DNA from: Macrostomum lignano | Lineage: Eukaryota | Direction: 5' to 3' | DNA: 64,000 nt | Assembly: GCA_002269645.1 (NCBI GenBank) | Contig: NIVC01000926.1 | Span: forward strand, 124,001-188,000 | Shown: positions 820 through 33,385 of the stretch, piece after piece | How positions within the stretch are numbered: the stretch's first letter is position 1 | How the letters are laid out: every line of letters starts with the position of its first letter | Notes under the pieces: model-generated | Told to the model about the DNA's origin: nothing | What the model saw: the letters and a program-made list of their open reading frames with translations, nothing else | Database searches by the model: none | Position numbers and translations under genes: made by a program

Positions 820-3800
820 GTCAATAAATATGCAGACACAGCCACCTTTTATTTATCCAACTTTTTAAGTGGCTAACTAACACTCGCAATAACCAGCTAG
901 AGTTGCCCGCTACAGTAACCTTTAAACCATACATTTGTAACTTGCTAGCAAATTTGACCAAAAATACGCTCAAAGGGTGTCCACAGTGGCTATCATGGTG
1001 TCCAGCTTTCACATATTCCATATTCGTGTGTATCGTTTCATAAGGAAAGCGTACGTAAGAAAACTATATACACGCAGAGGATCAACGGATAAATTATTCC
1101 GTAAATCCCCCTAAATAAGGCGTGAAATAAAATTATTACCTTCCACCCGAGAGTTCTCGTCAGCAAATTTTGGCTCTCGCTAGTCAGTTCTCCATCATGT
1201 TGGTCAAGGATACTGCGAAAATCTCCCTCGCTCATCACTACCTGTGTTGCATTGGTTGACGTTAAAGCGGTGCAGTAGGCCAGCAGAATCTAAGATGGAT
1301 GGACAGCGCATCACATTATTGTACATTGGACAGTAGACACTGTTAGGGCGTGCCAGGAAGCATGGATAACTCAACTTACCGAATACTCGAGCAAGTTGTT
1401 TTTTTTTCGATACTTTGGCGATGCAACTGTGTTACAGGTATATCACTTCCTGAACCAGGGAGTATAAAAATTAGATCACTGTAGTCTCCATGAGCTTGGC
1501 CACCACGTTGACGTCCTGAGCGGCGAGCGACCCCCGATTGAAATTCTGTTTGGCATCGATTTGAACCTTTATTTTTTCTAGGTGTACATCTGAATTTGGG
1601 ACGGTCGTTTTGTTTTAATATGTTATTTCGTCTGCAACGCGAACCTTTTGTGTTCATTGGGCAGCAGTCGGGTTCATCCGGGTCGACGAAAAGTGAGTGC
1701 ATGCTTCCAGGGTCCTCCGGGTCGATGAAAGGTGAGTGCATGCTGCCAGGGTCCTCCGGGTTGACGAAAGGTGAGTGGCATTCAGGTTCTTCCGGTGTGG
1801 GTGAATGGGCGTAATCAGATTCGTCCATGACTAGCCCTTCCAACGTACAAAGAACGACGTCCTTGCCTTTTCTTTCTGTCCCATCCTTCTGTTGCCACAT
1901 CCTCAGTTATCTCAGATTTCCTTTTTCTCCTGAAGCATGCCGCATGTGTTCGCTGCAAAATGCGACACTCCGATACTCGTCGAAGAACAAGTGGGACATA
2001 GTGCTCAATAAACTTCGTTAACGAGGTTTTAACCGAAAACTTTTTTTTTACCATTGCGAACCAGCTTTCTACATGTGCGTTTGAATAAAACGATTTTGTA
2101 TATTTTTCTATTAAATGACTCCACGAAAACATGGCCCAAAAGGATAATATTGCCAGGTATCGAAGTAGAAAAAAGTCTATCCGCTGGGGACAGTAAAACT
2201 CATTTTGTTTCAGTTGTTGATGTGCTGATATGGTCGCCGTTGGGTCTATATTTTGATCGAGAATCCGCTTAAAGTAAATGTAATGCGGGGAGTTCTTTAG
2301 GATTGCTTCGCCGTCTGATTCTATCGTGGTATCTGTGTCGTGAGTCAGCAATTTAAATTCGGCGAGGTCACTATACCCGTTACCATGTTGCAGAAAGCTC
2401 GCCACTCTCTTTCGGGCAGCCACTGTATGTTCTACATAACGAGACCCAAAAATAGTAAGTGTGTCTTTAATGATCCCGACGCAAGTATCCTGATTGTTGG
2501 AATACTGGATTAAGGAAAAAACTTTAGAAACAATGTCCGGCATCGTGGAGTGATGGATAGTTTCTTGCAATAGTCCGACACGGATTTAATAACGTGGTTA
2601 CTACACAGGAAGACTCCATAACTTATCTCACTTGGAACTTGTTGCATGAAAAAGTGGTAGTGCATGTTAAGGTATGTAGCCACATCAGTATGGTGGAAGT
2701 CGAGACAAGCGTGGATCTGTGCCCAAGAAAAATCTGTGACGAAAAGTATGCTTACATCAGTTGAGCAGGGCGTGCTCATAAATTGCACAATTTTATGTCG
2801 TAAAACCTTCAAGAAGTGAGAAATCGATGCAACGTTGTGCGAGTCGGATATTGAATTGGCGACAGAAGCAGATGGTACAGAATTCGTTGCCGATGTGACG
2901 ATAGAATACAGCAGTATGGAGCCAGGTGAAGTACTTTTCTCAATCAGGGATCCCGTGGCGTCTATATGCAATACCGTAAGGTGCAGCGTTGCGCAGCATT
3001 GACGAAGCAGTGTTATCTCATTTTGGGAAAACATTACTACGCGGAGTGGGTCTAAACAACGTTCAAGTATCATTCCGGGTAGCAATGGATGAGTAAATTT
3101 CTCTTCATATACCAATTTCAGCTTCCCTAAGGCAACGAAAAGCAGAGGGTGTAGCTGCTCCTCTTTTTCCATTTGACTTTTAATATTGTGCATGACAGTT
3201 TTTGTTTCGCATGCATCCCAGTTACAAGACAATATAAAAGGCAAATTATCTAGCGACAAAAAACGCCTTCTAAACGCCTCCGTAGGTCCTAACTCTCGAA
3301 TATCCGAACAAAATTCAGCTCTCTCTCTCCTTGTTGTTCGTCTGAAATAGCCGACCGTCGCCGCTGTGATTTAATTCTCCCGAGACGCCTACATCCCATT
3401 GCCATCTCTGCTGTGAGTGTGGAGGCCGTCGCATCACTAGTCTATACTTTCGAGCACAACCTTCAATTTTACATAAAACTTTGATGGTCCAAAAATTCTG
3501 CTTTGATTTCCTTGAATTGTAGCTTCTAACATAGTTGTAACCAGTCATTTTTAGGCAACATGTAGTGACAGATTTCATTGCACGGCAAATAGCTTCATTA
3601 GTGTTCGGCAGTGAGTATCTATAGCGACGCCCCCAATTGGGTCTCCTCCAATCGTAAATTGATTAGACGGATATCTTCCTCACCTATCTCTATACTTAGT
3701 CGCTCAGACGCTTCACAAAACTGAATCTCTTCTTCAAACGATAGATTAGTAGAGGAGCTAGCACCAAACGAAGTACTAAGCCTGCAGGATTCATTTAACT

Positions 3801-4158
3801 CAGCGGCTTCAACCCCTTCCTGGACGGAGGGTTCATCGCTTTCATCGTCAGTGTCCAGGTTTTCAACGAAATTGCAGTCAGGTTTATGTGTCTCCGAACT
3901 GGTGTTACTACTTTCGTTCACAGACTGTACACTATCGTTTCTTTTGCTTTCATCCCTCCGTCGATCTTCAGCGGACGCTCGGACAGGAGACGCGAGCACG
4001 TTATTTTTTTCACATCTTCCCTTTACAGCCTTTTTTCTCGAACGGAATCCCGTGCCATCCGCTTCTCTATAACCATTCGATCTGCGAATGGAATTCCACA
4101 ATATGACTCGATTACGTAACCGATTTCTAATTTTCAGAACCTTACACAGGTAGGTGTA
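820..4158 (-). pseudogene. NOF/Foldback-like MULE (Mutator) DDE transposase, frameshifted; upstream part displaced to beyond 33391 by the Maverick insertion
   Basis: ORFs 3315-3578 (CKIEGC...ELNH zinc-domain-like), 2510-3259 (LHIDATGS = D1, TDFSWA = D2, FLCSNH = CxxH) and 1815-2570 (NAHVESWF = E) are colinear and broken by frameshifts. The small ORFs at 821-1238 may be a C-terminal domain. Confidence 0.7.
1670..1808. repeat. 39-bp coding minisatellite, about 3.5 copies
   Basis: Repeated GGGTCCTCCGGGTCGATGAAAGGTGAGTGCATGCT; translates as F(V/I)(N/D)PEDPGSMHSP in ORF 1376-1900. Confidence 0.85.
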
Positions 4159-4499
4159 AGTAGTATGTAAAAAGACGAGCACAGACCCAGAACCCCCTTT
4201 TTAAAATATGCGTTTTTAAGGTCTAGAGGGGGGACACGGGGGGAAATTTAAAGAACACATCTAAACACCCTCCAGCACCCTCCAACACATAAAAACACAC
4301 CTAACACATAAAAACACATCTAACACTATTAACACTTCGAATCAAGTCCCCCGTGTCCCCCCTCTAGACCTTAAAAACGCATATTTAAATAAGGTCTGAT
4401 CTGTGCTCGTCTTTCCACACACTACTACACACACAAACTCTCTAGAACCCGTCGCACGCGCCGCAGGCGCGAAGGGTCTTTTTCTGTTACTAAAAATGA
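4159..4499 (+). repeat. Left TIR (341 bp) containing a 268-nt palindrome
   Basis: Reverse complement of 33045-33385 with scattered substitutions; arms 4159-4243 and 4348-4426 pair around an A/C-rich loop. Confidence 0.93.
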
Positions 4500-4781
4500 G
4501 CCGAGTTTACATGAATTTCACATGATACATGCTAACGAATATAAAAATTCATGTGCTGTTTTACACACAATGCACCGAGGACAGAGAATAAAAGCGTCTA
4601 TTGTGCTACAGCGGGGCAGGCCATTTTTGGATAGAGAATCTTTTGTGTTTGCGCCATCTATATTTTCTATACAAAAAAAGAGTAAAAAAGAGCTATAAAA
4701 TAAAACCGCTCGAGATGCTTGTACACTACCCTTTCTTTAGTGTCTGCAACTTAATTTTTCTGTTACTAAAAATAGACAAAA

Positions 4782-5177
4782 ATGACACACGTTACACATA
4801 TGCAAAATATGAATGAATTGCAGGTAGGAGACCCAGTTGAATACCGAGGTGAGGGTCTTTTTGATGTGGTTGGAACAGCAGCAAACTTCGTTAAAGATAA
4901 TATGGGTCTTATAGGCCAAGCAGGCTCTGCAGCAGGTTCTATAACAAACGCTGTAAAGGGTGGAATTGAAGCAGCGAGGGCAGTAGAAGAACTAAAGAAA
5001 TTGAGAGAATTTAACGACACCCTCTCACAAATAAAAGCAATAAAAGATTTGAAACTAGCGCAGGAAGCAACTCAAGCCGCACAACCAACAGAAACCCCCA
5101 CGAAAACCACACCAATAAGCAATAAAGATATTCAGGATTTTAATAAAATGTTAACCACAATTAAAGGTGGAAAATGA
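4782..5177 (+). CDS. Maverick 131-aa Gly/Ala-rich protein of unknown function (possible virion protein)
   Basis: Intact ORF, first gene after the left TIR, ends in IKGGK. Confidence 0.65.
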   Translation: MTHVTHMQNMNELQVGDPVEYRGEGLFDVVGTAANFVKDNMGLIGQAGSAAGSITNAVKGGIEAARAVEELKKLREFNDTLSQIKAIKDLKLAQEATQAAQPTETPTKTTPISNKDIQDFNKMLTTIKGGK

Positions 5178-5202: not shown

Positions 5203-6177
5203 ATGGACACGGATAACGACCGTTTATATTTTATAGGAGAAATTGTAGATACTTTAAATCTAGATGATAATAAACATAGCCACACAATGTTAAAAAGATT
5301 GGATCGTTTAGGTAAAAAACTTGACTACGATATCGATACATTTAAACTTGCTGCAAAATATGCACAAGAAGGAAGGCCAATATCCTTTAAGAATCGCGGT
5401 AGAAATTATAGGCTGACAGACTCCGATGTAAAATTTTTATTGGAGACTCACACTAAAAAAGACGGCGGATTGTTACCTATTTTACCAATTCTTTTAGGCC
5501 TCGGAGCAGCCGGAGCAGCCGGTTTAGCAGGCAAAAGAATTCATGATAACCGAAAACAGTTAGCAGAATTAAAAGCAAAACAGGGGGGTATACTTCCACT
5601 TGCAACTTTGTTACCAATAATTTTTGCAGGAATAGGAGCAGCTGGAGGAGTTGCTGGTGGAGCAGCTGGAATTGCAAAAGCAGTAAATGACAAAAAAGCT
5701 GCGGATGAAAAAGCCAAAAGAGAGGCCGAATTTCAAAGACAGCAAATAACGCAGGATGCTCAATTCAAACAGAAACTCATTGACACTATTAATTGTAGTT
5801 CAGCAACAGCAGAGCAAAAAAGAAATGCAGAAGCTAGGTTAGCAGCCGGAAAAGGTTTACTGTTAAATGGCAGCGGTTTGGTACTAAAAGGAACAACCCA
5901 AGGAAGTGGAGTTGTAGCAGATAAACTACAGGAATTTGGTCAAACTTTAGAAAAAACGGGTGAGAAAGCTAAAGGATTTTTTGACAATATTGGAGCTAAT
6001 TTTAGGCCAGCAGTTCAGAAGATTTTTAATAAGTTAGGAAAAGATTTTAACATAATTGAAAAACACGATGGAAGCGGATTATATCTCGAAATGAGACCAA
6101 AAGCAGGTTCAGGAATTTTCTTAAATTCAAATGTTATGGGCAACGGACTACTGTTACCAAAAGCAGATCTCGAATAA
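5203..6177 (+). CDS. Adenovirus pX-like core/membrane-active precursor protein
   Basis: Two GG(L/I)LP-hydrophobic-GAAG segments (KDGGLLPILPILLGLGAAG; KQGGILPLATLLPIIFAGIGAAGGVAGGAAGIAKAVN) resembling adenovirus pX GGILPLLIP; repeated G(K/S/N)G(L/I)(L/Y/F/V)L motifs. Confidence 0.7.
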   Translation: MDTDNDRLYFIGEIVDTLNLDDNKHSHTMLKRLDRLGKKLDYDIDTFKLAAKYAQEGRPISFKNRGRNYRLTDSDVKFLLETHTKKDGGLLPILPILLGLGAAGAAGLAGKRIHDNRKQLAELKAKQGGILPLATLLPIIFAGIGAAGGVAGGAAGIAKAVNDKKAADEKAKREAEFQRQQITQDAQFKQKLIDTINCSSATAEQKRNAEARLAAGKGLLLNGSGLVLKGTTQGSGVVADKLQEFGQTLEKTGEKAKGFFDNIGANFRPAVQKIFNKLGKDFNIIEKHDGSGLYLEMRPKAGSGIFLNSNVMGNGLLLPKADLE

Positions 6178-6203: not shown

Positions 6204-9200
6204 ATGGAAGCTATTTTAGCCAAAATCGATAATCCTGAAATTAGAGCACAATTAATAGCTCAATTGGAATTAGAAAGAGCTAATATAGAAGCAGAAATTA
6301 GAGCAAAATATGAAAAACGTTTAGAAAGACAATTAAATGATATTGACAACCCCCAACCACAAAGACAAAATGGAGCTGAAGTAATAGATATAGATATAGA
6401 TATAAATACAAATTATAAAGAATATTTTAAACAAATGAAAGATAAATTAAAGACCATATTAAACAATTATACTATAAGGCCAAATAACAAACGACAGCCA
6501 ATTAAGTATAAAATAGAAGTTGAAACAGAATTTAAAAAACCAAATATACTTAATGCAAATTCAGAAATTGAAGTAATAAATAACTTTTCACAAGAATCAT
6601 ATAAAACATTACTATCAATGAGAAATTACGACAATCAATTTAATCAAATAGAAGCTGAGTTTGATGAATGGATAGATAAGATGACAGAAAACGGATCTGG
6701 GTTTATATTTGTATCTTTTAATTCAGCAACAGTAAAGATTGTTCCTATTGAAATTCTTAAAGGGCGATCACATATGAATCCAGGATTTAAATCACACATG
6801 ATCATAAATCCAGACAATAGTGATAATAAATGTTTATTATGGTGTTTATTAATTCATAAATATCACAATCAAGTAGAATCACACACTAATAGAATATATA
6901 ATTATAGACAATATGAGAATGAAATAATAATGGAAAACATATCATACCCAGTAGCCATAGATGATATATATAAGATTGAAAAAATGAATGGGTTAAATAT
7001 TAATGTGTTTACAATTGAACAGCCAGAAGAAGAAAATCCAACCGATAAAGATTGGTATAAGAAAAACTGTTATTTAGTAAAGCCAGCAACTGATATAACA
7101 GCACCCAATCAAATCGACCTTTTGTACATACAGAATGAAAATGAAACACATTATATCTACATAAAGGACATTAGTTCATTTTTAGAAGTAAATAAAAATA
7201 GAATGCTATTATGTAGAAACTGTTTCACATTTAAAAAGAATGAAACAGCTCTTAAAAATCATCAACGATTTTGCTTAGATCATAAATTTACTAATGTTGT
7301 AATGCCAGATTATGAAGATGCAACCCTAAAGTTCCAACAACATTATATGGCAATTAAAAAACCAATAGTAATATATGCTGATTTTGAAGCAACAAATGTT
7401 CCCTTAAAAGAATCACAGACAGTATCTGATGGCGAATGCACAAAAAAATTAGCACAACAGTTTCCTAATAGTTATTGTATATATGTACACTCAGTAGCCA
7501 ATCATATATTTAAATCAAGGCTGATTACTTACCACGGCAAGGACGCAGCAAAACACATGGCAGAATCATTAGTAAATGCATTTGAAGTTATACAAAATCA
7601 ATATGATAAATTATCAAAAAATATTATTATGACAGATAAGGATAGAGACAATTATAAAAATGCAACAAATTGTTTTATGTGCAAAAGGTATTTAAGTAAG
7701 AATAATAAAATACGAGAACATTGTCATCTAACGGGAAAATATCGTGGGGCAGCATGTAGATCATGTAACGCAAAAGAAGGAAAAGGCTGTAAGGAAATAC
7801 CAGTATTTTTTCATAATGGTTCCGGATATGATTTTCATTTCTTAGTTCGAGAATTGCTACATTTAGGAAAGGATGAATATGAAGTAAATATATTACCTAA
7901 AACATCAGAAAATTACATATCAATAACATATGGTAAGAAATACTCCCATCTAGTTTTTCTAGACTCCTTGAGATTCTTATCAACCTCCCTAGCGAATGTT
8001 GTTTCATCATTAGTTCCAAAACCATGGGATTTAGAAATAGTAAAGAAAAACTTTCCAATACTATTGAATCGTTTCAAAAAAGAAAAACTATCCGAGGAAG
8101 AACTAATGCTATTAACTCGTAAGGGCATCTATCCATATGAATATGTAACATCTGAAAACGTATTTAGTGATACTCAACTACCCCCAATTGATAAGTTTTA
8201 TTCAACATTATCACAATCAAATATAAGTGAATCGGATTATGAACACGCTCAAAAAGTATGGAAATACTTTAATTGTAAAACATTTAAAGATTATCATAAT
8301 CTATATCTTAAAGCAGATATTCTCCTATTAGCTGATGCATTTGAAAACTTTAGGAATCATACATATGAGAACTTCAAAATTGATCCCGCATATTGTTTTA
8401 GTGCACCAGGTGATTGAGAAAGGAATTCGCGGCGGATTCTCGGGGGTACTAGGAGATAGATATACTAAAGTAAATAATAAATATCTACCAAATTATAATA
8501 AAAAAGAAAAATCATCATATGTATTATATCTAGATGCAAACAATTTATACGGTGGTTGTATGAAACAAAAATTACCAATAGCTGATTTCCAATGGGAAGA
8601 CGATCCCGATTATTACAAAAACATTCCCGAAGGAAGGGGTTGTATTGTAGAAGTGGATTTGCTATATACTCGGGAAGCAAAAGCAAAAACATATAAATAT
8701 CCTTTAGCTCCAGAGCATTGTTCAGTTAATGAAGATGATTTATCACAAACACAAAAAGATTATCTTAAAGCTGATAATACAAAACATCTAGCAACAAAAA
8801 AGTTAATACTAAATTTACATGATAAGAAAAACTATGTAGTGCATTATAAGCTTCTACAATTTTATGAAAAACAGGGATTAAAAGTGTCTAAAGTACATCG
8901 AACAATATCGTTTATTGAGGAAGATTGGTTAGCTAAATATATTGACTTTAATTCAAATCAGAGACAGATGTCAAAATCAAATTTTGAGAAAGATTATTGG
9001 AAATTAATGAATAATGCTTTTTATGGAAAAACGGTTGAAAATATTAGAGATAGAACCCAATTCCATTTAGAAAAGGATATTGATAAAGCAAAGAAATATT
9101 TCTCAAAACCTAACTTTAAAGACTTTATAAAATTTTGATGAGGACGCACTTTTTCCCAAATCCCGCGCTAGCACATGGGCTCTAAACTTACTTGCCTACT

Positions 9201-12039
9201 AACAGTGGGCAGTGGGCATTTTTATCCTTTTTCTGCGAATTTTCATAGAATCTATACTAGATATAATGTCTGGCCATACTAGTAGTCATAATAACATAGG
9301 CGCAGCTTTTTGGGTCGTAAATCATCGCTTTCGAAGCTGATCTGACAGCCACCTGCGCCTCACTCAGTGTTGAAGCGGGCGCCAGATGGTCTGAGAGGAT
9401 GCGGGCGGTAGCTTTTTTTTCTCATCATTTTGACAGGCCATCAAGATTTATGAGGTCAGAGCCTATTGTTCGGATTCACTCAAGCGTGTGACAGCTTTGA
9501 CAGCTATGCGTTGTACCCCTAAAAGTACCTTGGGATCAGCGATTAGCGATTTCTCTTCATTATCTTCACTTTCTATTTAATAAGAGCTTTCTAATGTATA
9601 TTTTTTCATTAATTTCTGTCAATCCTACGCGAAAAGTCATAAATCATTTTGTTGCGATTTTGAGTGATTTATGGCCGCACCTGTCATCTTTTTACGACCC
9701 TGTGGGAACTGATAGGATCTCTCGGTCACGTGATTCTGGGTAGCAACGAGCTTAGCCAATCAGAAAATTCGGCGCTCATTTTAACAAAACGGCTCAGCCA
9801 ATCAGAATCGACGTGTTCCGTTATAACAAACTGCGGTCCAGTTGGCGGCTATTTAAACCGGAGTTTTTGGCCCGCTCGGACGCAACTTCTTCTTACTTTG
9901 GCTCGGGCCCAGCGCGCAGCTTCTGGTTCCCGGAGCACGACCGTCGTTTCTTGATCCCCGGATTGCAACTTCCCCCATCATCATCAAGGACGAGTCCCCC
10001 GGTCGACAGCAGCGAACATCCAGTTAAGAGCATCACCTGCTAGCTAACAGCGAAGATTGTGACAGCATCATCCCGAGTCTACAGCTGCAGAGCATCGAGC
10101 CGATTCGGTCACTGTGGAATACCTGGTCTCCGGCTGTTGAGTTTCTGATTGGTTGGGTGAGAGGCTACCTAGACTTGCTTGATTGGGTGATCCCTTTTCT
10201 GTCCCCTGTTGCAGTAGCTGAATTAGGCGCACAATTTTGCTCATTTTGTTCAGTAGTGCTGTTGCTGAGGCAGGAATCATTCAATAATACTGCCAGTAGT
10301 CTAAGACTCCAATTCAATCTAAAGTGTGAAGTGAATTAAGGAGAAGATTAAATCTAACAGTTATCTTTGTCGGCTTTATTTCTTTGTTCGCCGATGGCTC
10401 AGATGAGTAGCTAAGCTAGTAGGCGCCGGTCACAGTGGACCAATGGCAAGGCAGTTCTCAGTCGACCAATCTAACAAATCAGTGAGCAAAACTGCCAAAA
10501 GTGCAGAATCGGCGCCAGAGATGTACTTTGTGCACTCTAGGGTAGCCAAGCGGCTCGGGTAAATGAATCATGCGGTCTCTGAAGTTCGAGTTAGCCTATC
10601 ATCAGCGCTATGAGAGGCTAGTTGGCGCGTTGAAGGCTAGAAGTACATATCTTCGTATTTAGCAATGTAATAGTACATGTAGCTACCCATAGACTCGCCA
10701 CCGCAAGAATCCCCTGCACAAGTCCCCTCTGTACCTGCATGGCCAACGCGATCTAGTCCCAGCAGTGTCCCTTATCATCGGCTATGACTTCGAGATTGAC
10801 AGCAAAAAGACACTAGTTGGCAGGTAAGTGCAAAGCCCCTTCTAGTCGGAAGCCCGATTTCGAGAGTCCCGGTGTGGTGAGCCAGGGCGCACGGGCTGGT
10901 GGCAGCAAGTTAGTTGATCTGCGGATTAGCTAATTTCTACTTTCAAAATTCTCCCTGCTCGTCTCTCGCTGTCCCTCTCTTAGCTATAGGACCTAGACTG
11001 CTCGCCACACGATCAAGCTACCATGGGGCTGACCATCTGACAGGAGTGGGGGGCCAGGTCTCTAATTGATTTATTTCTGAGCCTGAGGCCCGAAGGCTTC
11101 CCTAACAAGGAGCCCGAAGGTCGAATCCCATCAATTTGATGATAACTTTATGGGTATTCATATGAGAAATAAAACAACAAAATTTCTTAAACCAATATTT
11201 ATTGGAATGGTTGTTTTAGATTTTGCAAAGTTAGTAATGTATGAATACTATTATGATGTTATAAATAAAACGTGGCCAGATAACTATCCAATATATGCAG
11301 ATACTGACAGTTTGGTATTTAAGGTTGAAACACCAGATGTTTATAAAGATATGGAAAAAATTAAGGATACATTGGATACATCCGACTATCCGGATAACCA
11401 TCCCTTAAAATCAGATCAAAATAAAAAAGTTGTACTTAAAATGAAAGATGAATTAAATAGCAAAATCATAACTGAGTTTATAGCAATAAGATCAAAATGC
11501 TATGCATTTAAAGTTTTAGGACAGGAGGGAGAGGTAAAAAAATAAAAGGGGTATCGAGGGCAGCAGTTAAAAAGATAACATTTGATGATTATAAAAACGT
11601 ACTTTTAGATTATCTTAATACAATTGAAAATTATCATGCTCCACAATATCGATTAAATTCAGATAAGCATCAGATGTTTGTCATTGAGACAGATAAAAAA
11701 ACATTAAGTCCATTTGATGATAAAAGATATTTAGATGATAAAATTAAAACATTTCCATTTGGTTTAAAAGAAGAGATAAAAAATATGATAAAAGATAAAA
11801 AACAAAAAGAAGATATAATAAGCAAATATAGAGAATACAAAGAGGCAATAAATAATTATTATTACGATTGTGATTGCGAATCCGAATGTGAATGTGAATA
11901 TAATAAATATCTAGAATATGAAAAAGATATAGATAATTATTATGCAACATTTCCAAAAGAACTTAAAAAATTAAACAAGGAAAAAGTCTTGGATAACTGG
12001 AAGAGATTAACAGAAAAATTAATACCGGCAAAAAACTAA
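6204..12039 (+). pseudogene. polB: Protein-primed family B DNA polymerase with an embedded EndoVII-like zinc domain; disrupted
   Basis: YADFE, FHNGSGYDFH, KADILLLAD (exonuclease I-III); CFMC...EHCHLTGKYRGAACRSCN; YLDANNLYG, KLMNNAFYGK, YADTDS. Lesions: deletion with frameshift at about 8410 (SAPG joined to IEKGIRGG), solo LTR at 9136-11133, frameshift in an A-run at about 11543. Confidence 0.97.
9136..11133. mobile_element. Solo LTR (1998 bp), probably Ty3/Gypsy-type
   Basis: Termini TGATG...CATCA; 4-bp TSD ATTT at 9132-9135 and 11134-11137; removal restores polB ...DFIKFDDNFMGIHMR...; no coding capacity; CCAAT and TATA-like motifs near 9755-9860. Confidence 0.85.
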
Positions 12040-21322: not shown

Positions 21323-23655
21323 GCCCCTGGCATTAGTTAGTCAAGTGGTCTAGTGGGGGCTGGCCGCCCCCACGCCCCTGGCATTAGTTAGTCTAGTGGT
21401 ATAGTGGGGGCTGGCCGCCCCCACGCCCCTGGCATTAGTTAGTCTAGTGGTATAGTGGGGGGCTCGCCGCCCCCCACGCCCCTGGCATTAGTTAGTCTAG
21501 TGGTATAGTGGGGGCTGGCCGCCCCCCACGCCCCTGGCATTAGTTAGTCTAGTGGTATAGTGGGGGGCTGGCCGCCCCCCACGCCCCTGGCATTTGTTAG
21601 TCTAGTGGTATAGTGGGGGGCTCGCCGCCCCCACGCCCCTGGCATTAGTTAGTCTAGTGGTATAGTGGGGGCTGGCCGCCCCCCACGCCCCTGGCATTAG
21701 TTAGTCTAGTGGTATAGTGGGGGCTGGCCGCCCCCACGCTCCTGGCATTAGTTAGTCTAGTGGTATAGTGGGGGGCTGGCCGCCCCCCACGCCCCTGGCA
21801 TTAGTTAGTCTAGTGGTATAGTGGGGGCTGGCCGCCCCCCACGCCCCTGGCATTAGTTAGTCTAGTGGTATAGTGGGGGGCTGGCCGCCCCCCACGCCCC
21901 TGGCATTAGTTAGTCTAGTGGTATAGTGGGGGCTAGCCGCCCCCCACGCCCCTGGCATTAGTTCTTCTAGTGGTACGCTCGTATAGTGGGGGGGGGCTTG
22001 CCGCCCCCCACGCCCCTGGCATTAGTTAGTCTAGTGGTATAGTGGGGGGCTGGCCGCCCCCCACGCCCCTGGCATTAGTTAGTCTAGTGGTGTAGTGGGG
22101 GGCTGGCCGCCCCCCACGCCCCTGGCATTAGTTAGTCTAGTGGTATAGTGGGGGGCTGGCCGCCCCCCACGCCCCTGGCATTAGTTAGTCTAGTGGTATA
22201 GTGGGGGCTGGCCGCCCCCACGCCCCTGGCATTAGTTAGTCTAGTGGTATAGTGGGGGGCTGGCCGCCCCCACGCCCCTGGCATTAGTTAGTCTAGTGGT
22301 ATAGTGGGGGCTGGCCGCCCCCCACGCCCCTGGCATTAGTTAGTCTAGTGGTATAGTGGGGGCTGGCCGCCCCCACGCCCCTGGCATTAGTTAGTCTAGT
22401 GGTATAGTGGGGGGCTGGCCGCCCCCACGCTCCTGGCATTAGTTAGTCTAGTGGTATAGTGGGGGCTGGCCGCCCCCACGCCCCTGGCATTAGTTAGTCT
22501 AGTGGTATAGTGGGGGCTGGCCGCCCCCACGCCCCTGGCATTAGTTAGTCTAGTGGTATAGTGGGGGCTGGCCGCCCCCACGCCCCTGGCATTAGTTAGT
22601 CTAGTGGTATAGTGGGGGCTAGCCGCCCCCCACGCCCCTGGCATTAGTTCTTCTAGTGGTACGCTCGTATAGTGGGGGGGGCTTGCCGCCCCCCGCCCCT
22701 GGCATTAGTTAGTCTAGTGGTATAGTGGGGGCTGGCCGCCCCCACGCCCCTGGCATTAGTTAGTCTAGTGGTGTAGTGGGGGCTGGCCGCCCCCCACGCC
22801 CCTGGCATTAGTTAGTCTAGTGGTATAGTGGGGGCTGGCCGCCCCCACGCCCCTGGCATTAGTTAGTCTAGTGGTATAGTGGGGGCTGGCCGCCCCCACG
22901 CCCCTGGCATTAGTTAGTCTAGTGGTACGCTCGTATAGTGGGGGGCTTGCCGCCCCCCACGCCCCTGGCATTAGTTAGTCTAGTGGTATAGTGGGGGGCT
23001 GGCCGCCCCCACGCCCCTGGCATTAGTTAGTCTAGTGGTATAGTGGGGGCTGGCCGCCCCCCACCCCTGGCATTAGTTAGTCTAGTGGTATAGTGGGGGC
23101 TAGCCGCCCCCCACGCCCTGGCATTAGTTCTTCTAGTGGTACGCTCGTATAGTGGGGGGGGGCTTGCCGCCCCCCACGCCCCTGGCATTAGTTAGTCTAG
23201 TGGTATAGTGGGGGCTGGCCGCCCCCACGCCCCTGGCATTAGTTAGTCTAGTGGTATAGTGGGGGGCTGGCCGCCCCCACGCCCCTGGCATTAGTTAGTC
23301 TAGTGGTATAGTGGGGGCTGGCCGCCCCCACGCCCCTGGCATTAGTTAGTCTAGTGGTATAGTGGGGGGCTGGCCGCCCCCCACGCCCCTGGCATTAGTT
23401 AGTCTTGTGGTATAGTAGGGGGCTAGCCGCCCCCCACGCCCCTGGCATTAGTTTTTCTAGTGGTATAGTGGGGGGCTGGCCGCCCCCCACGCCCCTGGCA
23501 TTAGTTAGTCTAGTGGTATAGTGGTATAGTGGGGGGCTAGCCGCCCCCCACGCCCCTGGCATTAGTTAGTCTAGTGGTATAGTGGGGGGCTGGCCGCCCC
23601 CACGCCCCTGGCATTAGTTTTTCTAGTGGTATAGTGGGGGCTGGCCGCCCCCACA
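21323..23655. repeat. 51-bp minisatellite array, about 45 units
   Basis: Unit GCCCCTGGCATTAGTTAGTCTAGTGGTATAGTGGGGGCTGGCCGCCCCCAC; no unique spacers. Confidence 0.97.
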
Positions 23656-24052
23656 CCCCGCTCCCCCACCCCTCCCGCGCGTTGTTGTTGGGGAGGGTGG
23701 TTGTTGTTGTGGGGTTTGCGTAACGTGGGGGCTGCCGCCCCACACCCCCGCTCCCGCACCCCACCCCTCCGCAACTCTTCTCACCTCTAACACATCTTTT
23801 TAGCATGCTAAAACTGCTTGTAAGCCTTTGGCGACCGCGCAACACATGATACTTGCCGATATGTATCGTAATATTTTTTCTGCACTAACAAATCATCTGT
23901 GCCGCACTTTCAGCTTCACTCTTACTCTTTAATAAGGTATAGAAGGAAATGAAAATTAAACAATCAATATTAAATTATATTCAAGTGAAAGAGAATTGAA
24001 AATACTAATAAATCCGTTCCTGCTAAAAAAATTAAATTTAAAAAAAAAACTT

Positions 24053-24125
24053 TGCCCACTTGGGATTCGAACCCGTGTTTAGGCCATTTACAAAGCAACT
24101 GCCTTCGGCCCCGATCCATCTCTTG
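24053..24125 (-). pseudogene. tRNA-derived (Pol III promoter-like) sequence
   Basis: Minus strand has B-box GGTTCGAATCC followed by a T-run; no clean cloverleaf. Confidence 0.55.
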
Positions 24126-25980
24126 CTTAAGCGAAGCTCTACAGTGCACGCCCTTTATATCGAATATTCCCTATGGTAGCCACTTTTACGATTTTTGCTG
24201 CTTTTTCATACATTTCTGCTCGCTGCATCGCAGCGCCTTCATCTAAAAATGCGAGTTGCATGTCGTTACAGAGATAACATCAAGGCGCATTCATCTAATG
24301 CATTTTTAAAGTATGTCAACAAATTTTACGCCTCCTAGGCGCCAAATTGTGCATTTTCACCTGTTCTGACAGGTATTCAAACAGGTATTAAGACCTATTA
24401 ACTTAAGAATCAGTTTTCAAAACTAATTTAGTTGCACAGTGCATCCATAGTGCTGTTTTTAGACACCAAAATTGAGTCTCTAGGCCTTGCCAATGCAGAG
24501 TTATTAGCAAAAGTATGCTCAAAATTTGCCCAAAAATAGCCTTCTAAAAATTCGGAGCCAATTTTCTCAAAAATACGAATTTTCCAGCCATATTGGCGTA
24601 TGACCGGTGTAACTTTAGCTATTCGACTAAACAATATTGAAAATGCAGAAAAATCGGTGCGCAAAAATTCTTATTTTTCGACTTCAAAGTTTGTACCCCC
24701 GAATGGGCCGTTTTTCACTTAACAGGTAAAAAGTACCTGTTAACAGAGGTTTTTTCAGGAGTGTTTTATGTCATTCAAAAGGGCATCCGATAGGCTACAA
24801 TTTGACGCCATACTCGAAAAACTTTGCCCCATTTTAAAAAAATTTCCTTAACAACGTCTGATTTTCTGCAGTGCCCCCGGCCTCTTTTTTCCCTGGTTTC
24901 CGGGTCACTGCTCAGCACAGGTAGGTCCAAATGCTTAGAAAATTTAGGAAAACAAATTTCCATATGTTTGACACGTCGTGTTAAAGTCTCAACACTGTAG
25001 CATAAAACACTTTTTCAAGTTTGAGGACTACTTTTTTAAAACGTGACCCAATTTTTCGAAAATGTCGTTTTTAGGCACTCTTTGGCACCTGGGCAGGTTA
25101 TTGATGGCCCAATCGGCCAAATCTCGATGTTTCCGATTAAAAGACATCCATTTGAGTTATTTGGTATACAAAACAGCAAAAATAAAGTTTTCCATCTCGA
25201 CGCCATAGGCCTCACAAAAGTGCACTAAAAATTTGTACTTTTAAACAGCAGATAGGCAACCATGTGAAAAGTACATTTTAGCCCTAAAAACTATAGCGCA
25301 TCAAACAGCCCCAGGTGTTATTGACGCTATGAGGCAGCTCAAAGGCCGCGCTATCGCGCGTCCTTTTCGCTGCGGTGAGGCAAAGTTGAAAAAAATGCCG
25401 ATTTTTCGACCTCAGAAAACACGTTTTTTGCACTTTTACCCTAAAAGTTAAAGTACAATCAAAAAATCCATTTCTGATCATTGTAGCGTTTGAATGCCCG
25501 CGTTTACTGAGCCCACTCGCTAAGCGCTGCCATATTCTCAATCCTTATTTTTTGAGATCAAAGTTTTTGACAAAGTCGAAAAAACGCAGTTTTTGGTTGC
25601 CATGGCAACCAAAACGCGTTGCCATAGCAACCAACTATTGTGCATCCGATAGCGCTAGGTCTTTGACACATTTTGGCAAAAACTGTTTGTAAATCGGTTG
25701 TACCGTTTTTTATTGGCAGCGTTTAAAAGTTGAAAAACGTCATTTTTAGTGTGTGCAACCACGTTACATCTTATCAGGGACGATTTCGCAAAAGTAAGCA
25801 GCATAGAAAAAAATTCTCGCTTCGCTCGCCTTTTTTTCTATACTACTTACTGGCTCATCGTCCCACAACTAGTGAATGAAGACGCTGTCGTCTTCAAAGG
25901 TGGGACGATGGTTTATATTGTGTCCATTATTGTTTATGGCTATGACATCTATTTATTTAACCTAAATTGAGATCTAAAAA

Positions 25981-27570
25981 GCCCCCCACGCCCCTGGCAT
26001 TAGTTAGTCTAGTGGTATAGTGGGGACTGGCCGCCCTGGCATTAGTTAGTCTAAGTGGTATAGTGGGGGGCTGGCCGCCCCCACGCCCCTGGCATTAGTT
26101 AGTCTAGTGGTATAGTGGTATAGTGGGGGCTGGCCGCCCCCACGCCCCTGGCATTAGTTAGTCTAGTGGTATAGTAGGGGGCTGGCCGCCCCCCACGCCC
26201 CTGGCATTTATTAGTCTAGTGGTATAGTGGGGGCTGGCCGCCCCCCACGCCCCTGGCATTTATTAGTCTAGTGGTATAGTGGGGGCTGGCCGCCCCCACG
26301 CCCCTGGCATTAGTTAGTCTAGTGGTATAGTGGAGGGCTGGCCGCCCCCACGCCCCTGGCATTAGTTAGTCTAGTGGTATAGTGGGAGGCTGGCCGCCCC
26401 CACGCCCCTGGCATTAGTTAGTCTTGTGGTATAGTGGGGGCTGGCCGCCCCCCACGCCCCTGGCATTAGTTAGTCTAGTGGTATAGTGGGGGCTGGCCGC
26501 CCCCACGCCCCTGGCATTAGTTAGTCTAAGTGGTATAGTGGGGGCTGGCCGCCCCCACGCCCCTGGCATTAGTTAGTCTAGTGGTATAGTGGTATAGTGG
26601 GGGCTGGCCGCCCCCACGCCCCTGGCATTAGTTAGTCTAGTGGTATAGTAGGGGGCTGGCCGCCCCCCACGCCCCTGGCATTAGTTAGTCTAGTGGTATA
26701 GTGGGGGCTGGCCGCCCCCACGCCCCTGGCATTTATTAGTCTAGTGGTATAGTGGGGGCTGGCCGCCCCCACGCCCCTGGCATTAGTTAGTCTAGTGGTA
26801 TAGTGGGGGCTGGCCGCCCCCCACGCCCCTGGCATTAGTTAGTCTAGTGGTATAGTGGGGGCTGGCCGCCCCCACGCCCCTGGCATTAGTTAGTCTAAGT
26901 GGTATAGTGGGGGCTGGCCGCCCCCCACGCCCCTGGCATTAGTTAGTCTAGTAGTATAGTGGGGGGCTGGCCACCCCCCACGCCCCTGGCATTAGTTAGT
27001 CTAGTGGTATAGTGGGGGCTGGCCGCCCCCACGCCCCTGGCATTTATTAGTCTAGTGGTATAGTAGGGGCTGGCCGCCCCCACGCCCCTGGCATTTATTA
27101 GTCTAGTGGTATAGTGGGGGCTAGCCGCCCCCCACGCCCCTGGCATTAGTTAGTCTAGTGGTATAGTGGGGGCTCGCCGCCCCCCACGCCCCTGGCATTA
27201 GTTAGTCTAGTGGTATAGTGGGGGCTGGCCGCCCCCCACGCCCCTGGCATTAGTTAGTCTAGTGGTATAGTGGTATAGTGGGGGGCTAGCCGCCCCCCAC
27301 GCCCCTGGCATTAGTTAGTCTAGTGGTATAGTAGGGGGCTGGCCGCCCCCCACGCCCCTGGCATTAGTTAGTCTAGTGGTATAGTGGGGGGCTGGCCGCC
27401 CCCCACGCCCCTGGCATTAGTTAGTCTAGTGGTATAGTGGGGGGCTGGCCGCCCCCCACGCCCCTGGCATTAGTTAGTCTAGTGGTATAGTGGTATAGTG
27501 GGGGCTAGCCGCCCCCCACGCCCCTGGCATTAGTTAGTCTAGTGGTAAAGGGGGGCTGGCTCCCCCACCG
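25981..27570. repeat. 51-bp minisatellite array, about 31 units
   Basis: Same unit as 21323-23655. Confidence 0.97.
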
Positions 27571-27875
27571 CTCCACCACCCCTCGAGAACTTTTCCCACA
27601 TCTAAACACGTCTTTGTAATATGTTACAACTATATTCTAGCCTTCAAACGACCAGACATCAAATACTTGCTTGCCGACATGTATCGTAATATACTTTTTG
27701 CACTAACAATCATACGTGCCGCACTAAAAGATTCACTGTTACTCTTTAAATACGTATAAAAAGAAAAATAAATTTAAATAAATGTAATTTAATTGTATAA
27801 AAAACATAATAGTTAGAGAAATAAAAATACTAAAAAACTGTTTGCTCTAAAAGAACTTTAAACTAAAAATTTTTC

Positions 27876-27942
27876 GGATCTCTTGGGAATCGAACCCTGC
27901 AGCACTCAATTATATGGAAACTAACTCTGCCACTGAGCCACA
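27876..27942 (-). pseudogene. tRNA-derived (Pol III promoter-like) sequence
   Basis: Minus strand has A-box TGGCTCAGTGG and B-box GGTTCGATTCC, followed by TTTTT. Confidence 0.6.
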
Positions 27943-30670
27943 AATTGCTTACTAAGTTGGCCTATTGTACACGTATTTTATATCGAATATCGCTAATAGC
28001 AGCCATTTCTACCATTTTTTCTGCTTTTTCATACATTTCTGCTCGTTGCATCGCAACGCTTCTACCTAAAAATACGAGTCGCATGTCGTTACAGAGATAA
28101 CATCAAGGCGCATTCATCCAATGCATTTTCAAACTATGTCAACAAATTTTTCGGCTGCTAGGCGCCAAAATATTAATTTTCACCTGTTCTGGCAGGTAAT
28201 CAAACAGGTATTAAGACCTGTTAACCTAAGAATCAGTTTTCAAAACTGATTAAGCTGCATAATGCATCCATAGTGCTGTTTTTAGACACCAAACTTGAGT
28301 CTCTAGGTCTCGCCAATGCAGAGTTATTAGCAAAAGTATGCTCAAAATTTGCCCAAAAATGGCCTACTCAAAATTCGGAGCCAATTTTCTCAAAAATACG
28401 AATTTTCCAGCCATATTGGCGTATGACCGGTGTAACTTCAGCTATTCGACTAAACAATATTGAAAATGCAGAAAAATCGGTGCGCAAAATTTCTTATTTT
28501 TCGACTTCAAAGTTTGTACCCCAAAAGGGCCGTTTTTCAATTAACAGGTAAAAAGTACCTGTTAACAGGGGTTTTTTCAGGAGTGTCTTATGTCATTCAA
28601 AAGGGCATCCGATGGGCTACAATTTGACACCACATTCGAAAAAATTCGCCCAGTAATAAAAATTTTTCTTTAACAACATATGGTTTTTTGGTCGAGTCCC
28701 CCGGCCTCTTTTTTCCCCGGTTTCCGGGTCACTGCTCCGCACAGGTAGGTTCAAATGCTTAGAAAATTTAGGAAAACAAATTTCCATATGTTTGACACGT
28801 TTTGTTAAAATTTCAACACCGTAGCTTAAAACACTTTCTTATTTTTGGAGACTACTTTTTGAAAACGTGACCCAAATTTTCAAAAACACTCTTTTTGACC
28901 CTTGTAGCCATATAGAGCAGCAATGAATGGCCCAATCAAGCAGATCTCAGCATTTCCGAATAAAAGACATCCATTTGAGTGATTTGGGTTGAAAAATTGA
29001 AAAAATCAAGATTTGCATCTGTATAGGATAAGCCTCTTTAAAGTGCACAAACGGTTTGTACTTTTAAAGTGCAGATAGGCAGCCATGTCAAAAGTACATT
29101 TTAGCCCAAAAAATTATAGCGCATCTAAAAGCCCCAGGTGTTGTTTACATTATGCAGCAGCTCAAAAGCCGCGCTATTGCGCGTCCTTTTCGCTGCAGTA
29201 CGGGCAAGGTTGAAAAACATGTACAAAAAATTGGCCGAAAAATTGCATTTTTAAAAATCAGATGCAGTTTGCTCAAAAATACGAATTTTCCAGCCATATT
29301 GGCGTATGACCGGTGAAACTTTAGCTATTCGACTAAACAATATTGAAAATGCAGAAAAATCGGTGCGCAAAATTTCTTATTTTTCGACTTCAAAGTTTGT
29401 ACCCCCAAATGGGCCGTTTTTCACTTAACAGGTAAAAAGTACCTGTTAACAGGGTTTTTTTCAGGAGTGTCTTATGTCATTCAAAAGGGCATCCGATGGG
29501 CTACAATTTGACACTACACTCGAAAAAATTCGCCTCATTTTAAAAAAATTTCCTTAACAACGTTTGATTTTCTGCAGAGCCCCCGGCCTCTTTTTTCCCT
29601 GGTTTCCGGGTCACTGCTCAGCACAGGTAGGTCCCAATGCTTAGAAAATTCAGGAAAACAAATTTCCAAATGTTTGACACGTCGTGTTAAAGTCTCAACA
29701 CCGTAGCATAAAACGCTTCCTTATTTTTGGGGACTACTTTTTGAAAACGTGACCCAATTTTTCGAAAATGTCGTTTTTAGGCACTCTTTAGCACCTAGGC
29801 AGGTTATTGATGGCCCAATCGGCCAAATCTCAATGTTTCCGAATAGAAGACATCCATTTGAGTAATTTGGTGTAGAAATATTAAAAAATAAAGTTTTCCA
29901 TCTCGACGCCATAGGCCTCACAAAAGTGCACTAAAATTTGTACTTTTAAACAGCAGATAGGCAGCCATGTGAAAAGTACATTTTAGCCCTAAAAACTATA
30001 GCGCATCAAACAGCCCCAGGTGTTATTGACGCTATGAGGCAGCTCAAAGGCCGTGCTATCGCGCGTCCTTTTCGCTGCGGTGAGGCAAAGTTGAAAAAAA
30101 TGCCGATTTTTCGACCTCAAAAAACACGTTTTTTGCACTTTTACCCTAAAAGTTAAAGTACAATCAAAAAATCCATTTCTGATCATTGTAGCGTTTGAAT
30201 GCCCGCGTTTACTGAGCCCACTCGCTAAGCGCTGCCATATTCTCAATCCTTATTTTTTGAGATCAAAGTTTTTGACAAAGTCGAAAAAACGCAGTTTTTG
30301 GTTGCCATGGCAACCAAAACGCGTTGCCATAGCAACCAACTATTGTGCATCCGATAGCGCTAGGTCTTTGACACATTTTGGCAAAAACTGTTTGTAAATC
30401 GGTTGTACCGTTTTTTATTGGCAGCGTTTAAAAGTTGAAAAACGTCATTTTTAGTGTGTCACATCTGTTGCACATCTTATCAGGGACGATTTCGCAAAAG
30501 TAAGCAGTATAGAAAAAAATTCTCGCTTCGCTCGCATTTTTTTCTATACTACTTACTGGCTCATCGTCCCACAACTAGCGTAGATAATCGCTATAAAAAA
30601 GTTAAGCAACCAACTATCGAAGAATTTGCAAAACAATTAGTGTTAACTTGTATTTTTAAGGCTATTAAAA

Positions 30671-32733: not shown

Positions 32734-33048
32734 TTACATAAAAATTTCAATTTCATTCTCAGAATCACTAGTTTCATATGAGCTATTTGTTGATTCGGAA
32801 TCGTCTGAATGAACCTCCCAATCATCTGAATTTAAATAATCTCCAAGTTGAAATATTAACTCGCCCTCTTGTTCTAAATCATACATCTCATCCAACTCTA
32901 ATGGATAAAGTTTTAGGTCATACTTGTCGTCATATTTTAAATAAACTTCATCAATTATTCCGTTCAAAATATGCTGTTTTATTATCTCTGCATTTTTAGC
33001 AACAGTCTCAAAAGTATCACTAACAGAAAAGGTGTAAACTCTGTTCAT
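32734..33048 (-). CDS. Small acidic protein whose start codon lies inside the right TIR
   Basis: 104 aa; the ATG at 33046-33048 is the innermost part of the TIR. Confidence 0.65.
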   Translation of the reverse strand: MNRVYTFSVSDTFETVAKNAEIIKQHILNGIIDEVYLKYDDKYDLKLYPLELDEMYDLEQEGELIFQLGDYLNSDDWEVHSDDSESTNSSYETSDSENEIEIFM

Positions 33049-33385
33049 TTTTAGTAACAGAAAAAGACCCTTTGCGCCTGCGGCGCGGCCTGGGGTTATA
33101 GAGTGTTTGTGTATGTAGTAGTATGTAAAAAGACGAGTACAGATCAGCCCTTTTTTAAAAAGACCGTTTTAAGGTTCTAGAGGGGGGACACGAGGGGGAT
33201 AATTCGAAGTGTTGGGGGTGGTTTTTATTGATTTTTGGTATTAGGGGGTGTTGTAGGGTGTTTTTGTGTTGGAGGGTGTTTAGATGTGTTTTTTTATTTC
33301 CCCCTCGTGTCCCCCCTCTAGACCCTTAAAACGGTCTTTTTAAAAAGGGGCTTCTGGGTTTGTACTCGTCTTTTTACATACTACT
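33045..33385 (-). repeat. Right TIR (341 bp) containing a palindrome
   Basis: Arms 33117-33198 and 33300-33385 pair around a G/T-rich loop. Confidence 0.93.

Follow-up and report, generated by a model that had tools for sequence, protein, structure and literature searches.

The outer 268/269 nucleotides of each terminal inverted repeat (TIR) of an integrated Polinton/Maverick were found to fold into a stem of ~84 base pairs closed by a G-poor, unpaired loop of 101–105 nt, a shape that resembles a racket. The differences among the four stem arms form a mosaic: the loop-proximal stem groups the arms by the end of the element on which they lie, and the middle of the stem groups them by outer or inner position. 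Templated copying of one arm from the other is the likeliest cause of the coupling between arms. We assign a probability of about one-half to a mechanism in which the arms are homogenized by template switching during protein-primed replication and in which the local fold, used as an origin, lets the two ends diverge. The terminal structure is real and unusual; the Polinton is otherwise ordinary and decayed.

Terminal Repeats and Hairpin Structure

The element occupies positions 4159–33385 (29,227 bp) of the window, by which we mean the whole 64-kb stretch of DNA that was analyzed, and the left hairpin lies at its left end. Its terminal features are listed below.

4153–4158: left target site duplication (TSD), GGTGTA, identical to 33386–33391
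4159–4511, plus strand: left TIR, 353 nt, 81.5% identical to the right TIR
4159–4242, plus strand: left outer arm, beginning at the true terminus AGTAGT
4185–4203, plus strand: left outer mid-stem block (CCCAGAA), one side of an asymmetric internal loop; groups by position
4204–4243, plus strand: left outer loop-proximal stem; groups by end
4243–4347, plus strand: left unpaired loop, 105 nt (A49 C32 G5 T19)
4348–4426, minus strand: left inner arm, ending in the internal ACTACT, with the inner-type block GATCAG at ~4387–4400
4427–4511, plus strand: non-hairpin inner part of the TIR, in which the motif TTTTTCTGTTACTAAAAAT extends into an ATG at 4496; 75/85 identical to the right end
33033–33385, minus strand: right TIR, 353 nt
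33117–33199, plus strand: right inner arm, starting with the internal AGTAGT
33200–33298, minus strand: right loop, ~100 nt (A50 C35 G3 T13 over 33201–33301, read inward)
33299–33385, minus strand: right outer arm, carrying the true terminus
33386–33391: right TSD, GGTGTA, matching the left TSD

A preliminary description of this DNA had regarded each TIR as a hairpin of roughly 270 nt. Folding substantiated the hairpin, which makes up the outer three quarters of a longer TIR and is a racket rather than a tight hairpin. The fold energies were −72.9 kcal/mol (z = −18.4) for 4159–4426 and −83.9 kcal/mol (z = −18.0) for 33117–33385, and none of 200 shuffled sequences was as stable as the natural hairpin at either end. 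Each end has a second, internal terminus, as had been described (ACTACT at 4421–4426 and AGTAGT at 33117–33122), and in silico the 3′ ACTACT pairs with the internal AGTAGT down to the last base. A free 268-bp mini-element, which had also been envisaged, was absent from the 64-kb window, and no TSD surrounds either hairpin. An Rfam scan of 3900–4800 gave no match at E up to 1.

The flanks of the loop are common to both ends, and the middle of the loop has been turned over with its length and A/C composition kept; over the middle 52 nt the likeness between the ends was no better than that of shuffled sequences (P = 0.74). Both loops lie in the same sense with respect to the TIR, with a score of 46 versus −185 for the flipped orientation, a comparison of two ends only. 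A G-quadruplex role for the loop was rejected, as tracts of three or more G number four on the right and two on the left and are not conserved. By eye, transition mismatches yield G–T wobbles on the 3′-end strand, which would suggest a strand preference; this reading was dropped because the fold energies of the two strands are equal (−72.8/−73.8 and −83.9/−83.2 kcal/mol) and the A/C bias of the strands points to an identical polarity.

The motif TTTTTCTGTTACTAAAAAT was found in three exact copies (4479–4497, 4755–4773, and 33047–33065), each at or just 5′ of an ATG. These copies are possibly the promoter of the element, and a promoter role for the region 4427–4511 may be proposed. The TIR extends five codons into a terminal open reading frame (ORF), which reads MSRVY on the left and MNRVY on the right; the left frame closes after nine codons.

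Mosaic Pattern of the Arm Differences

All of the motifs quoted in the preliminary description were recovered: GAGCAC, AAATATGCGTTTTT, and CACGGGGG in the left arms, GAGTAC, AAAAGACCGTTTT, and CACGAGGGG in the right arms, CCCAGAA in both outer arms, and GATCAG in both inner arms. Its broader statement, that the arms co-vary within an end, holds for the loop-proximal stem only. There, the arms of the same end differ at 1/40 (at the loop-side edge) and 1/42 positions, versus 8 differences in 42–43 positions in all four comparisons between ends. The middle block groups by position: the outer arms differ from one another at 1/19 and the inner arms at 3/15 positions, versus 8/19 and 6/19 within ends, and at each end of the element the block makes up an internal loop that is asymmetric. 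The left-end hairpin of MVM has a mismatch "bubble". The distal 26 nt are mixed, with one end-specific site and four unshared changes, and within the first 12 nt of the left inner arm there are three changes that are unshared. A C/T site at position 22 co-varies although it lies beyond the bulge. No column groups the left outer arm with the right inner arm. Taken over the whole arm, the identities overlap (87% and 90% within ends, 88% between the outer arms).

The duplexes formed by the two arms of one end have energies of −78.9 and −85.1 kcal/mol, versus −66.7 and −54.2 kcal/mol for swapped arms, and are thus better by 12–31 kcal/mol. The chance of coincidence was calculated from a by-eye count of left-versus-right events, 7 of them outer and 10 inner, with 5 shared. 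For 5 shared events over 80 positions, P was 2e-4 for position alone and 7e-6 if the change itself had to agree as well; under the least favorable of the settings tried, with 30 mutable positions and 4 shared events, the corresponding values were 0.14 and 0.012. Only 3/66 pairs were scored as changed on both sides by RNAalifold, a low count that arises because its alignment slips out of register in the indel-rich block.

The simple panhandle between the ends does not predict this arm pattern, as had been correctly stated, and it is still the more stable fold (−283/−286 kcal/mol for the end-to-end panhandle versus −181/−180 kcal/mol for the two local folds). Adenovirus ITRs that are unlike each other are converted through a panhandle. 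The fold-back copying that had been offered as the homogenizing process fits the data. A four-nucleotide block change and three one-nucleotide indels are mirrored in both arms, and the coupling is strongest beside the loop and breaks at the bulge, a pattern recognized as the mark of intramolecular template switching (PMC8604942). The bulge nevertheless persists, and wholesale fold-back copying would erase it unless it were selected, which counts against the mechanism.

Compensatory selection for base pairing alone could couple the arms without templated copying. It would account for the survival of the bulge and for the co-variation of position 22 beyond it, and single mismatches are tolerated in both stems. 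Under this explanation, however, four adjacent pairs and three indels must each have been fixed twice, and the proximal stems hold one intermediate mismatch. We consider compensatory selection by itself to be an unlikely cause of the pattern and templated copying to be the better one.

Age and Left–Right Divergence

The two TIRs differ at 18.5% of their positions, and this difference is alike in the outer arm (10/84) and in the non-hairpin inner TIR (10/85). One premature stop was found in 1612 codons that were checked against intact homologues, which corresponds to ~0.4% of sites substituted after the element had inserted (2–3% at the upper 95% bound); 17–25 stops are expected if decay of 9% per copy had made the TIR difference. 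Decay after insertion was rejected on these grounds as the source of the left–right differences. Because there is little decay and a large TIR difference, the ends were already unlike at integration, unless one end was later converted. The left–right divergence predates insertion, and the copy, although dead, is not old. The identity of the TIRs can therefore overstate the age of an insertion.

Assembly and polishing readily introduce errors at inverted repeats, and an artifact of this kind, or decay after insertion, could in principle have produced the pattern. The 6-bp TSD is perfect, however, the arms are only 87–90% alike and show one and the same asymmetry at the two ends, and the non-palindromic TIR diverges as much as the arms do in an element with decay of ~0.4% per site. 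We judge an artifact or decay to be extremely improbable. The intact TSD also argues against a chimera or a join of two loci.

The element may also have arisen by recombination between two sister lineages, in each of which the left and right TIRs were identical, such that the coupling of the arms arose between the lineages. The difference between the ends is similar in the outer arm and in the inner TIR and predates insertion, and sister Polintons at 79–94% identity coexist in rearranged form among the related loci described below (L016/L017 and L009/L024). A mechanism that couples the arms is still required, however, and with the TSD intact the cross must have occurred before integration, or a conversion tract must reach to within 22 nt of the terminus. 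Evidence for a breakpoint needs a second copy, and there is one copy here. We entertain the recombinant as a possible, tentative account of the left–right difference. It is compatible with templated arm copying and alters only the source of that difference. The preliminary description had set fold-back copying against a sister-lineage recombinant, which is a false choice: the recombinant explains why left differs from right and not why the arms match within an end.

Survey of Related Loci

A scan of genome contigs for related polymerases yielded 27 loci (L001–L027), which are distant pPolB2 relatives. The racket was searched for by self-BLAST and by folding of 90 of the 91 AGTAGT/ACTACT sites, with one site dropped (<200 nt). 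No comparable terminal stem was found at the 90 sites in the 27 loci; the best has 27 terminal pairs, versus 49 and 53 at the two ends of this element. Five putative termini were recognized by position (L001:5510, L003:4522, L005:90, L007:523, and L009:1088), and the L005 end has an N gap; among the ends of the 27 relatives, none was confirmed by a TIR pair plus a TSD. The TIR of the window gave no significant nucleotide match to the 27 loci (best E of 0.075). A link between the HNH nuclease and hairpin ends was considered and was not supported, as the motif is present in 15/27 loci and in 4/5 of those with putative hairpin-free ends. The racket is lineage-restricted and is not tied to the nuclease. 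Because relatives lack the racket, it is not needed by this class of polymerase.

The racket could be without function: an inverted duplication may have occurred once at the terminus and have been maintained since by its own quasi-palindrome correction. The relatives without a racket agree with this explanation, homogenization of arms needs no selection (PMC8604942), and a preprint on a halophilic protist also offers accidental annealing for terminal palindromes (10.64898/2026.07.28.741278). Across 18.5% divergence, however, the length of the loop (105 and 101 nt), its near-zero G content, its flanks, and the bulge are kept at both ends. We regard a lack of function as somewhat doubtful.

Three further observations were made on these loci. 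L016 differs from its sister Polintons L017/L018 (79–91% identity) by internal inversions, which point to modular recombination among these Polintons. The polymerase genes of L001–L027 sit in records labeled as bacterial or archaeal bins, many beside eukaryote-like repeats, and are likely eukaryotic host contamination of the bins. At L005:90–700, the putative terminus is followed by GC-rich direct repeats and not by an inverted repeat.

Gene Content and the Polymerase

The element is a single decayed, integrated Polinton/Maverick. Its 353-nt TIRs and 6-bp TSD, GGTGTA, fall within the Polinton ranges given in the available portions of 10.1101/2023.08.22.554363 (TIRs of 100–1500 bp and a TSD of 5–8 bp), and it encodes a protein-primed family B polymerase (pPolB) with a terminal-protein (TP)-like plus vOTU N-terminus, an rve integrase, and a double jelly-roll (DJR) capsid protein. 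It contains three later inserts and four frameshifts (two in the polymerase and one each in the ATPase and the integrase), and its length is ~17.6 kb after subtraction of the inserts. The genes are as follows.

5203–6177, plus strand: core-protein-like ORF, with a weak Adeno_PX match (E = 5e-4, below the curated cut-off)
6204–11763, plus strand: broken pPolB gene, with TP-like, vOTU, exonuclease (carrying an EndoVII/HNH insert), and polymerase regions
14282–16327, minus strand: putative fibre/receptor-binding-like ORF that includes an F5/8 type C domain as well as a 57-bp repeat
16337–16774, minus strand: candidate adenain-like protease, assigned indirectly through an L010 ORF (E = 1e-6) whose own match to Peptidase_C5 is sub-threshold
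16931–17716, minus strand: probable minor capsid protein, judged from its position; homologous to an L007 ORF (E = 8e-23)
17971–18486, minus strand: putative A32-type packaging ATPase (E = 0.001, sub-threshold); the frame ends early and continues in another frame
18586–20055, minus strand: DJR major capsid gene, with one premature stop near 18985
30668–31440, plus strand: phospholipase-A2-like ORF (PF08398, E = 0.0028, sub-threshold), split by a ~330-bp insert
31300–32276, plus strand: rve integrase, split over two frames, which leaves its match to PF00665 (E = 1.7e-6) below the curated cut-off
32734–33048, minus strand: 104-aa terminal ORF, with its start inside the right TIR

The DJR assignment was made through homologues. 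P0001 (48% identity) has a TM of 0.77 to a DJR cluster, and 3/3 of the next full-length capsid homologues scanned match PF21738, which P0001 itself does not. The capsid lineage is sparse: a profile search returned 13 of 1.84 billion representatives at E up to 1e-30, and the only two that score >800 bits are both profile inputs. Both halves of the integrase match the intact integrase of L007. Matches for the packaging ATPase and the adenain-like protease are sub-threshold or indirect only; the protease ORF had no PDB sequence match and the minor capsid candidate had no Pfam match. No Rep/HUH family member was found among the 21 element ORFs scanned, several of which had no match of any kind, and the phage collection gave no match to P0005. 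The ORF at 14282–16327 encodes 681 aa with about eight 19-aa repeats and is a candidate receptor-binding fibre. A 154-aa ORF at 20785–21249, with Cys pairs and an HIDH motif, looks by eye like a free-standing HNH nuclease; it has no meaningful Pfam match, and its end is cut by the nested insert.

Homologues of the pPolB were found at E down to 7e-84, and P0008 matches PF03175 at E = 2e-24. The polymerase appears to be pPolB2-like, a label given by resemblance (an HNH insert, with no direct PF03175 match) and not from a tree. The TP-like region comprises residues ~57–185, the vOTU residues are C210 and H316, the EndoVII/HNH insert lies at 485–536 and retains its Cys/His/Asn motif, and frameshifts occur near 8411 and 11540. 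A 737-residue model of the N-terminal polymerase was built with 12 sequences (mean pLDDT of 72.8). The top fold match of the model is the exonuclease of phi29 polymerase (Z of 14.6, rmsd of 3.0, 174 aligned). Residues 57–185 of the model match the Y-family little-finger/PAD fold with middling Z values of 8.3 for pol eta (rmsd of 3.0, 107 aligned) and 7.5 for PolIV 4IR1 (rmsd of 3.1, 99 aligned); the Foldseek match of this region has an E of 0.01, with none at E up to 0.001. The little-finger/PAD fold has been reported for the TP domains of Polintons (10.1101/2024.03.18.585575, in the portions available). G164-S165, C210, and H316 are invariant in 12/12 rows of the alignment, and the Gly-Ser lies between the second helix and the last strand. 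OTU and EndoVII chains were absent among the fold matches listed in two fold searches with the 737-residue model; the vOTU is predicted from its Cys/His motif and not from a fold match. The N-terminus of the polymerase is TP-like plus vOTU.

Given the TP-like fold with its invariant Gly-Ser and the vOTU Cys/His pair, protein priming is the default for this element. The preliminary description had likened the ends to those of parvoviruses and bidnaviruses, an analogy that finds no support: in the available text of PMC4061559, bidnavirus ITRs form no hairpins, and here the TP-like domain and the vOTU Cys/His are kept and the loops are unflipped. In a parvovirus-like rolling-hairpin scheme, the folded 3′ end would prime its own extension and the EndoVII/HNH domain of the pPolB would nick to resolve the product. 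The 3′ ACTACT does pair to its last base with the internal AGTAGT, the HNH insert does retain its motif, and hairpin priming has been proposed for the terminal palindromes of virophages and of Polinton-like viruses (PLVs) (10.64898/2026.07.28.741278). That same source, in its available parts, places the reported palindromes mostly in elements without pPolB. Moreover, the TP-like and vOTU domains are retained, the HNH motif is also found with putative hairpin-free ends, and no Rep/HUH match was obtained among the 21 ORFs scanned. The unflipped state of 2/2 ends is a weak argument, as free flipping gives one chance in two. With the TP-like domain kept, the loops unflipped, and bidnavirus ITRs non-hairpin, rolling-hairpin priming is disfavored, and we consider it very unlikely.

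Proposed Mechanism

Each TIR opens with ~84 terminal nt that recur in inverted orientation on the far side of a G-poor spacer of ~100 nt. The preferred reading is templated arm copying during protein-primed replication. During protein-primed strand displacement, each end, once single-stranded, would fold on itself, and the nascent strand would sometimes switch to the other arm of the same end and copy changes from the loop outward. The switch would usually return at the 4–5-nt bulge, leaving the proximal stem end-specific and the bulge position-specific. Template switching in quasi-palindromes is reported to homogenize arms and to make multinucleotide changes (PMC8604942). The local fold could form once 268 nt have been displaced and would thereby compete kinetically with the panhandle. 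With less support, the fold on the displaced strand may turn the 3′ terminus into a double-stranded copy of the origin at which the terminal protein could prime, and a role of the fold as a local origin is plausible. A loose precedent is found in Streptomyces telomeres, where protein priming takes place on a 3′ end capable of folding back (PMC4513846). A local origin would relax the need for left and right to be equal, and the ends could then diverge, or a recombinant with unlike ends could replicate and integrate. Protein priming would leave the hairpin uninverted, with the outer arm remaining outermost. The evidence comes from one element and two ends, which stands against the mechanism.

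We have also considered that the racket is a release signal. In this reading, which is most improbable in our estimation, the racket would fold while still integrated, either by cruciform extrusion or on single strands exposed by unwinding, and would thereby put a DNA junction exactly at the host–element boundary; the EndoVII-like domain of the pPolB would cut this junction, and the asymmetric bulge would set the cut such that a complete, non-inverted terminus is regenerated. If true, a release signal would explain how a Polinton exits without pairing of its ends, and solo hairpins are expected at empty donor sites. Release of an integrated Polinton and re-initiation on the displaced strand are still a model, based on TIR-to-TIR annealing, in the available portions of 10.64898/2026.07.28.741278. 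The clean integration of an element with ends that are 18.5% unlike, each with a co-varying stem and both sharing one asymmetry, provides a direct test of the annealing model with a defined substrate.

Comparison with Known Systems

With the pPolB2 Polintons/Mavericks, the element shares the TIR, the 6-bp TSD, the TP-vOTU-Exo pPolB with an HNH-type insert, the rve integrase, a putative ATPase, and the DJR capsid (10.1101/2023.08.22.554363 and 10.1101/2024.03.18.585575, in part). It differs from them in the 268-nt racket in its TIRs and in a TIR identity of 81.5% despite slight decay. In the portions available, neither of these two papers mentions a hairpin, and the first does not mention a palindrome. 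Long-loop terminal stems and arm covariation were likewise absent from the available portions of PMC11296320, 10.64898/2026.10.13.758929, 10.1101/2023.08.22.554363, PMC12220804, PMC8502044, 10.1101/2024.03.18.585575, and 10.1101/2022.07.28.501842. No long-loop terminal stem was thus met in the Polinton literature searched; the founding Polinton/Maverick papers, Repbase, and supplements could describe such ends.

The closest likeness is to the TIRs of Halocafeteria virophages and PLVs (10.64898/2026.07.28.741278, in part), in which short terminal palindromes have already been reported and hairpin priming proposed. There, too, a palindrome lies in the TIR beside the TSD of an rve-integrated Polinton-like element. 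Those palindromes are exemplified by one of 52 nt, were screened with gaps of ≤10 nt, and occur mostly without pPolB, whereas the element described here has an 84-bp stem, a 100-nt loop, and a pPolB with a TP-like domain. No left–right or arm covariation was found in the available parts of that preprint. Ends with loops as long as these would escape palindrome screens whose gap limits are short. Some casposon TIRs also contain palindromes (PMC4046053).

Quasi-palindrome template switching (PMC8604942, in part) shares with our case the homogenization of arms and the multinucleotide changes, but the cases described there are short chromosomal repeats with spacers of ≤70 nt, and the arms described here terminate an element that replicates itself and have an asymmetry that is conserved. 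The TP-capped telomeres of Streptomyces (PMC4513846, in part) share a terminal segment complementary to an internal one and protein priming at a foldable 3′ end; they differ in having short palindromes I–IV, end patching after internal initiation, and unrelated proteins, and the likeness is an analogy only. The telomeres of parvoviruses and poxviruses (PMC8956199, in part) are terminal hairpins with conserved mismatches, which in vaccinia play a part in the maturation of virions. Such telomeres either prime themselves or are closed covalently, and they occur as flip and flop, whereas in the present element no flip was seen, the scanned ORFs gave no match to Rep, and the polymerase has a TP-like domain. 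Bidnaviruses (PMC4061559, in part) share the Polinton-derived pPolB and TIRs, but ITRs without parvovirus-type hairpins set no precedent for ends that fold.

Later Inserts and Flanking Sequence

Tandem units at 21243–30572 are nested in the Polinton, which we take to be Helentron/HINE-like. Their subterminal inverted repeats are 11 bp long (21270/25856 and 25900/30562), one small hairpin lies at 21248 and another at 25878, and their central parts hold 52-bp arrays (21323–23659 and 26034–27568). A 59-nt hairpin is present near the ends of these units, at 25793–25851 and 30499–30557. Its minus-strand arm has AGTAAGTAGTATAGAAAAAA, which is 70% like the Polinton terminus over 37 nt, a likeness that is probably due to chance. 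The polymerase gene holds a 2-kb unclassified insert at 9134–11142 (~9142–11134 in the gene) that is GC-richer, is flanked by the 8-bp duplication TTTGATGA, and is present in a single copy within the window. The ~330-bp insert at 30799–31125, presumably piggyBac-like, splits the phospholipase-like ORF and is bounded by TTAA-CCC...GGG-TAAA. The host is a repeat-rich eukaryote and probably an animal; the ORFs scanned included no recognizable host gene. Further runs of unassigned ORFs lie at 1376–3370 and 46208–50921, and the right flank contains a broken hAT transposase and LTR-retrotransposon pol sequences (protease, RT, and RNase H) at 53165–55442 and 60728–63998.
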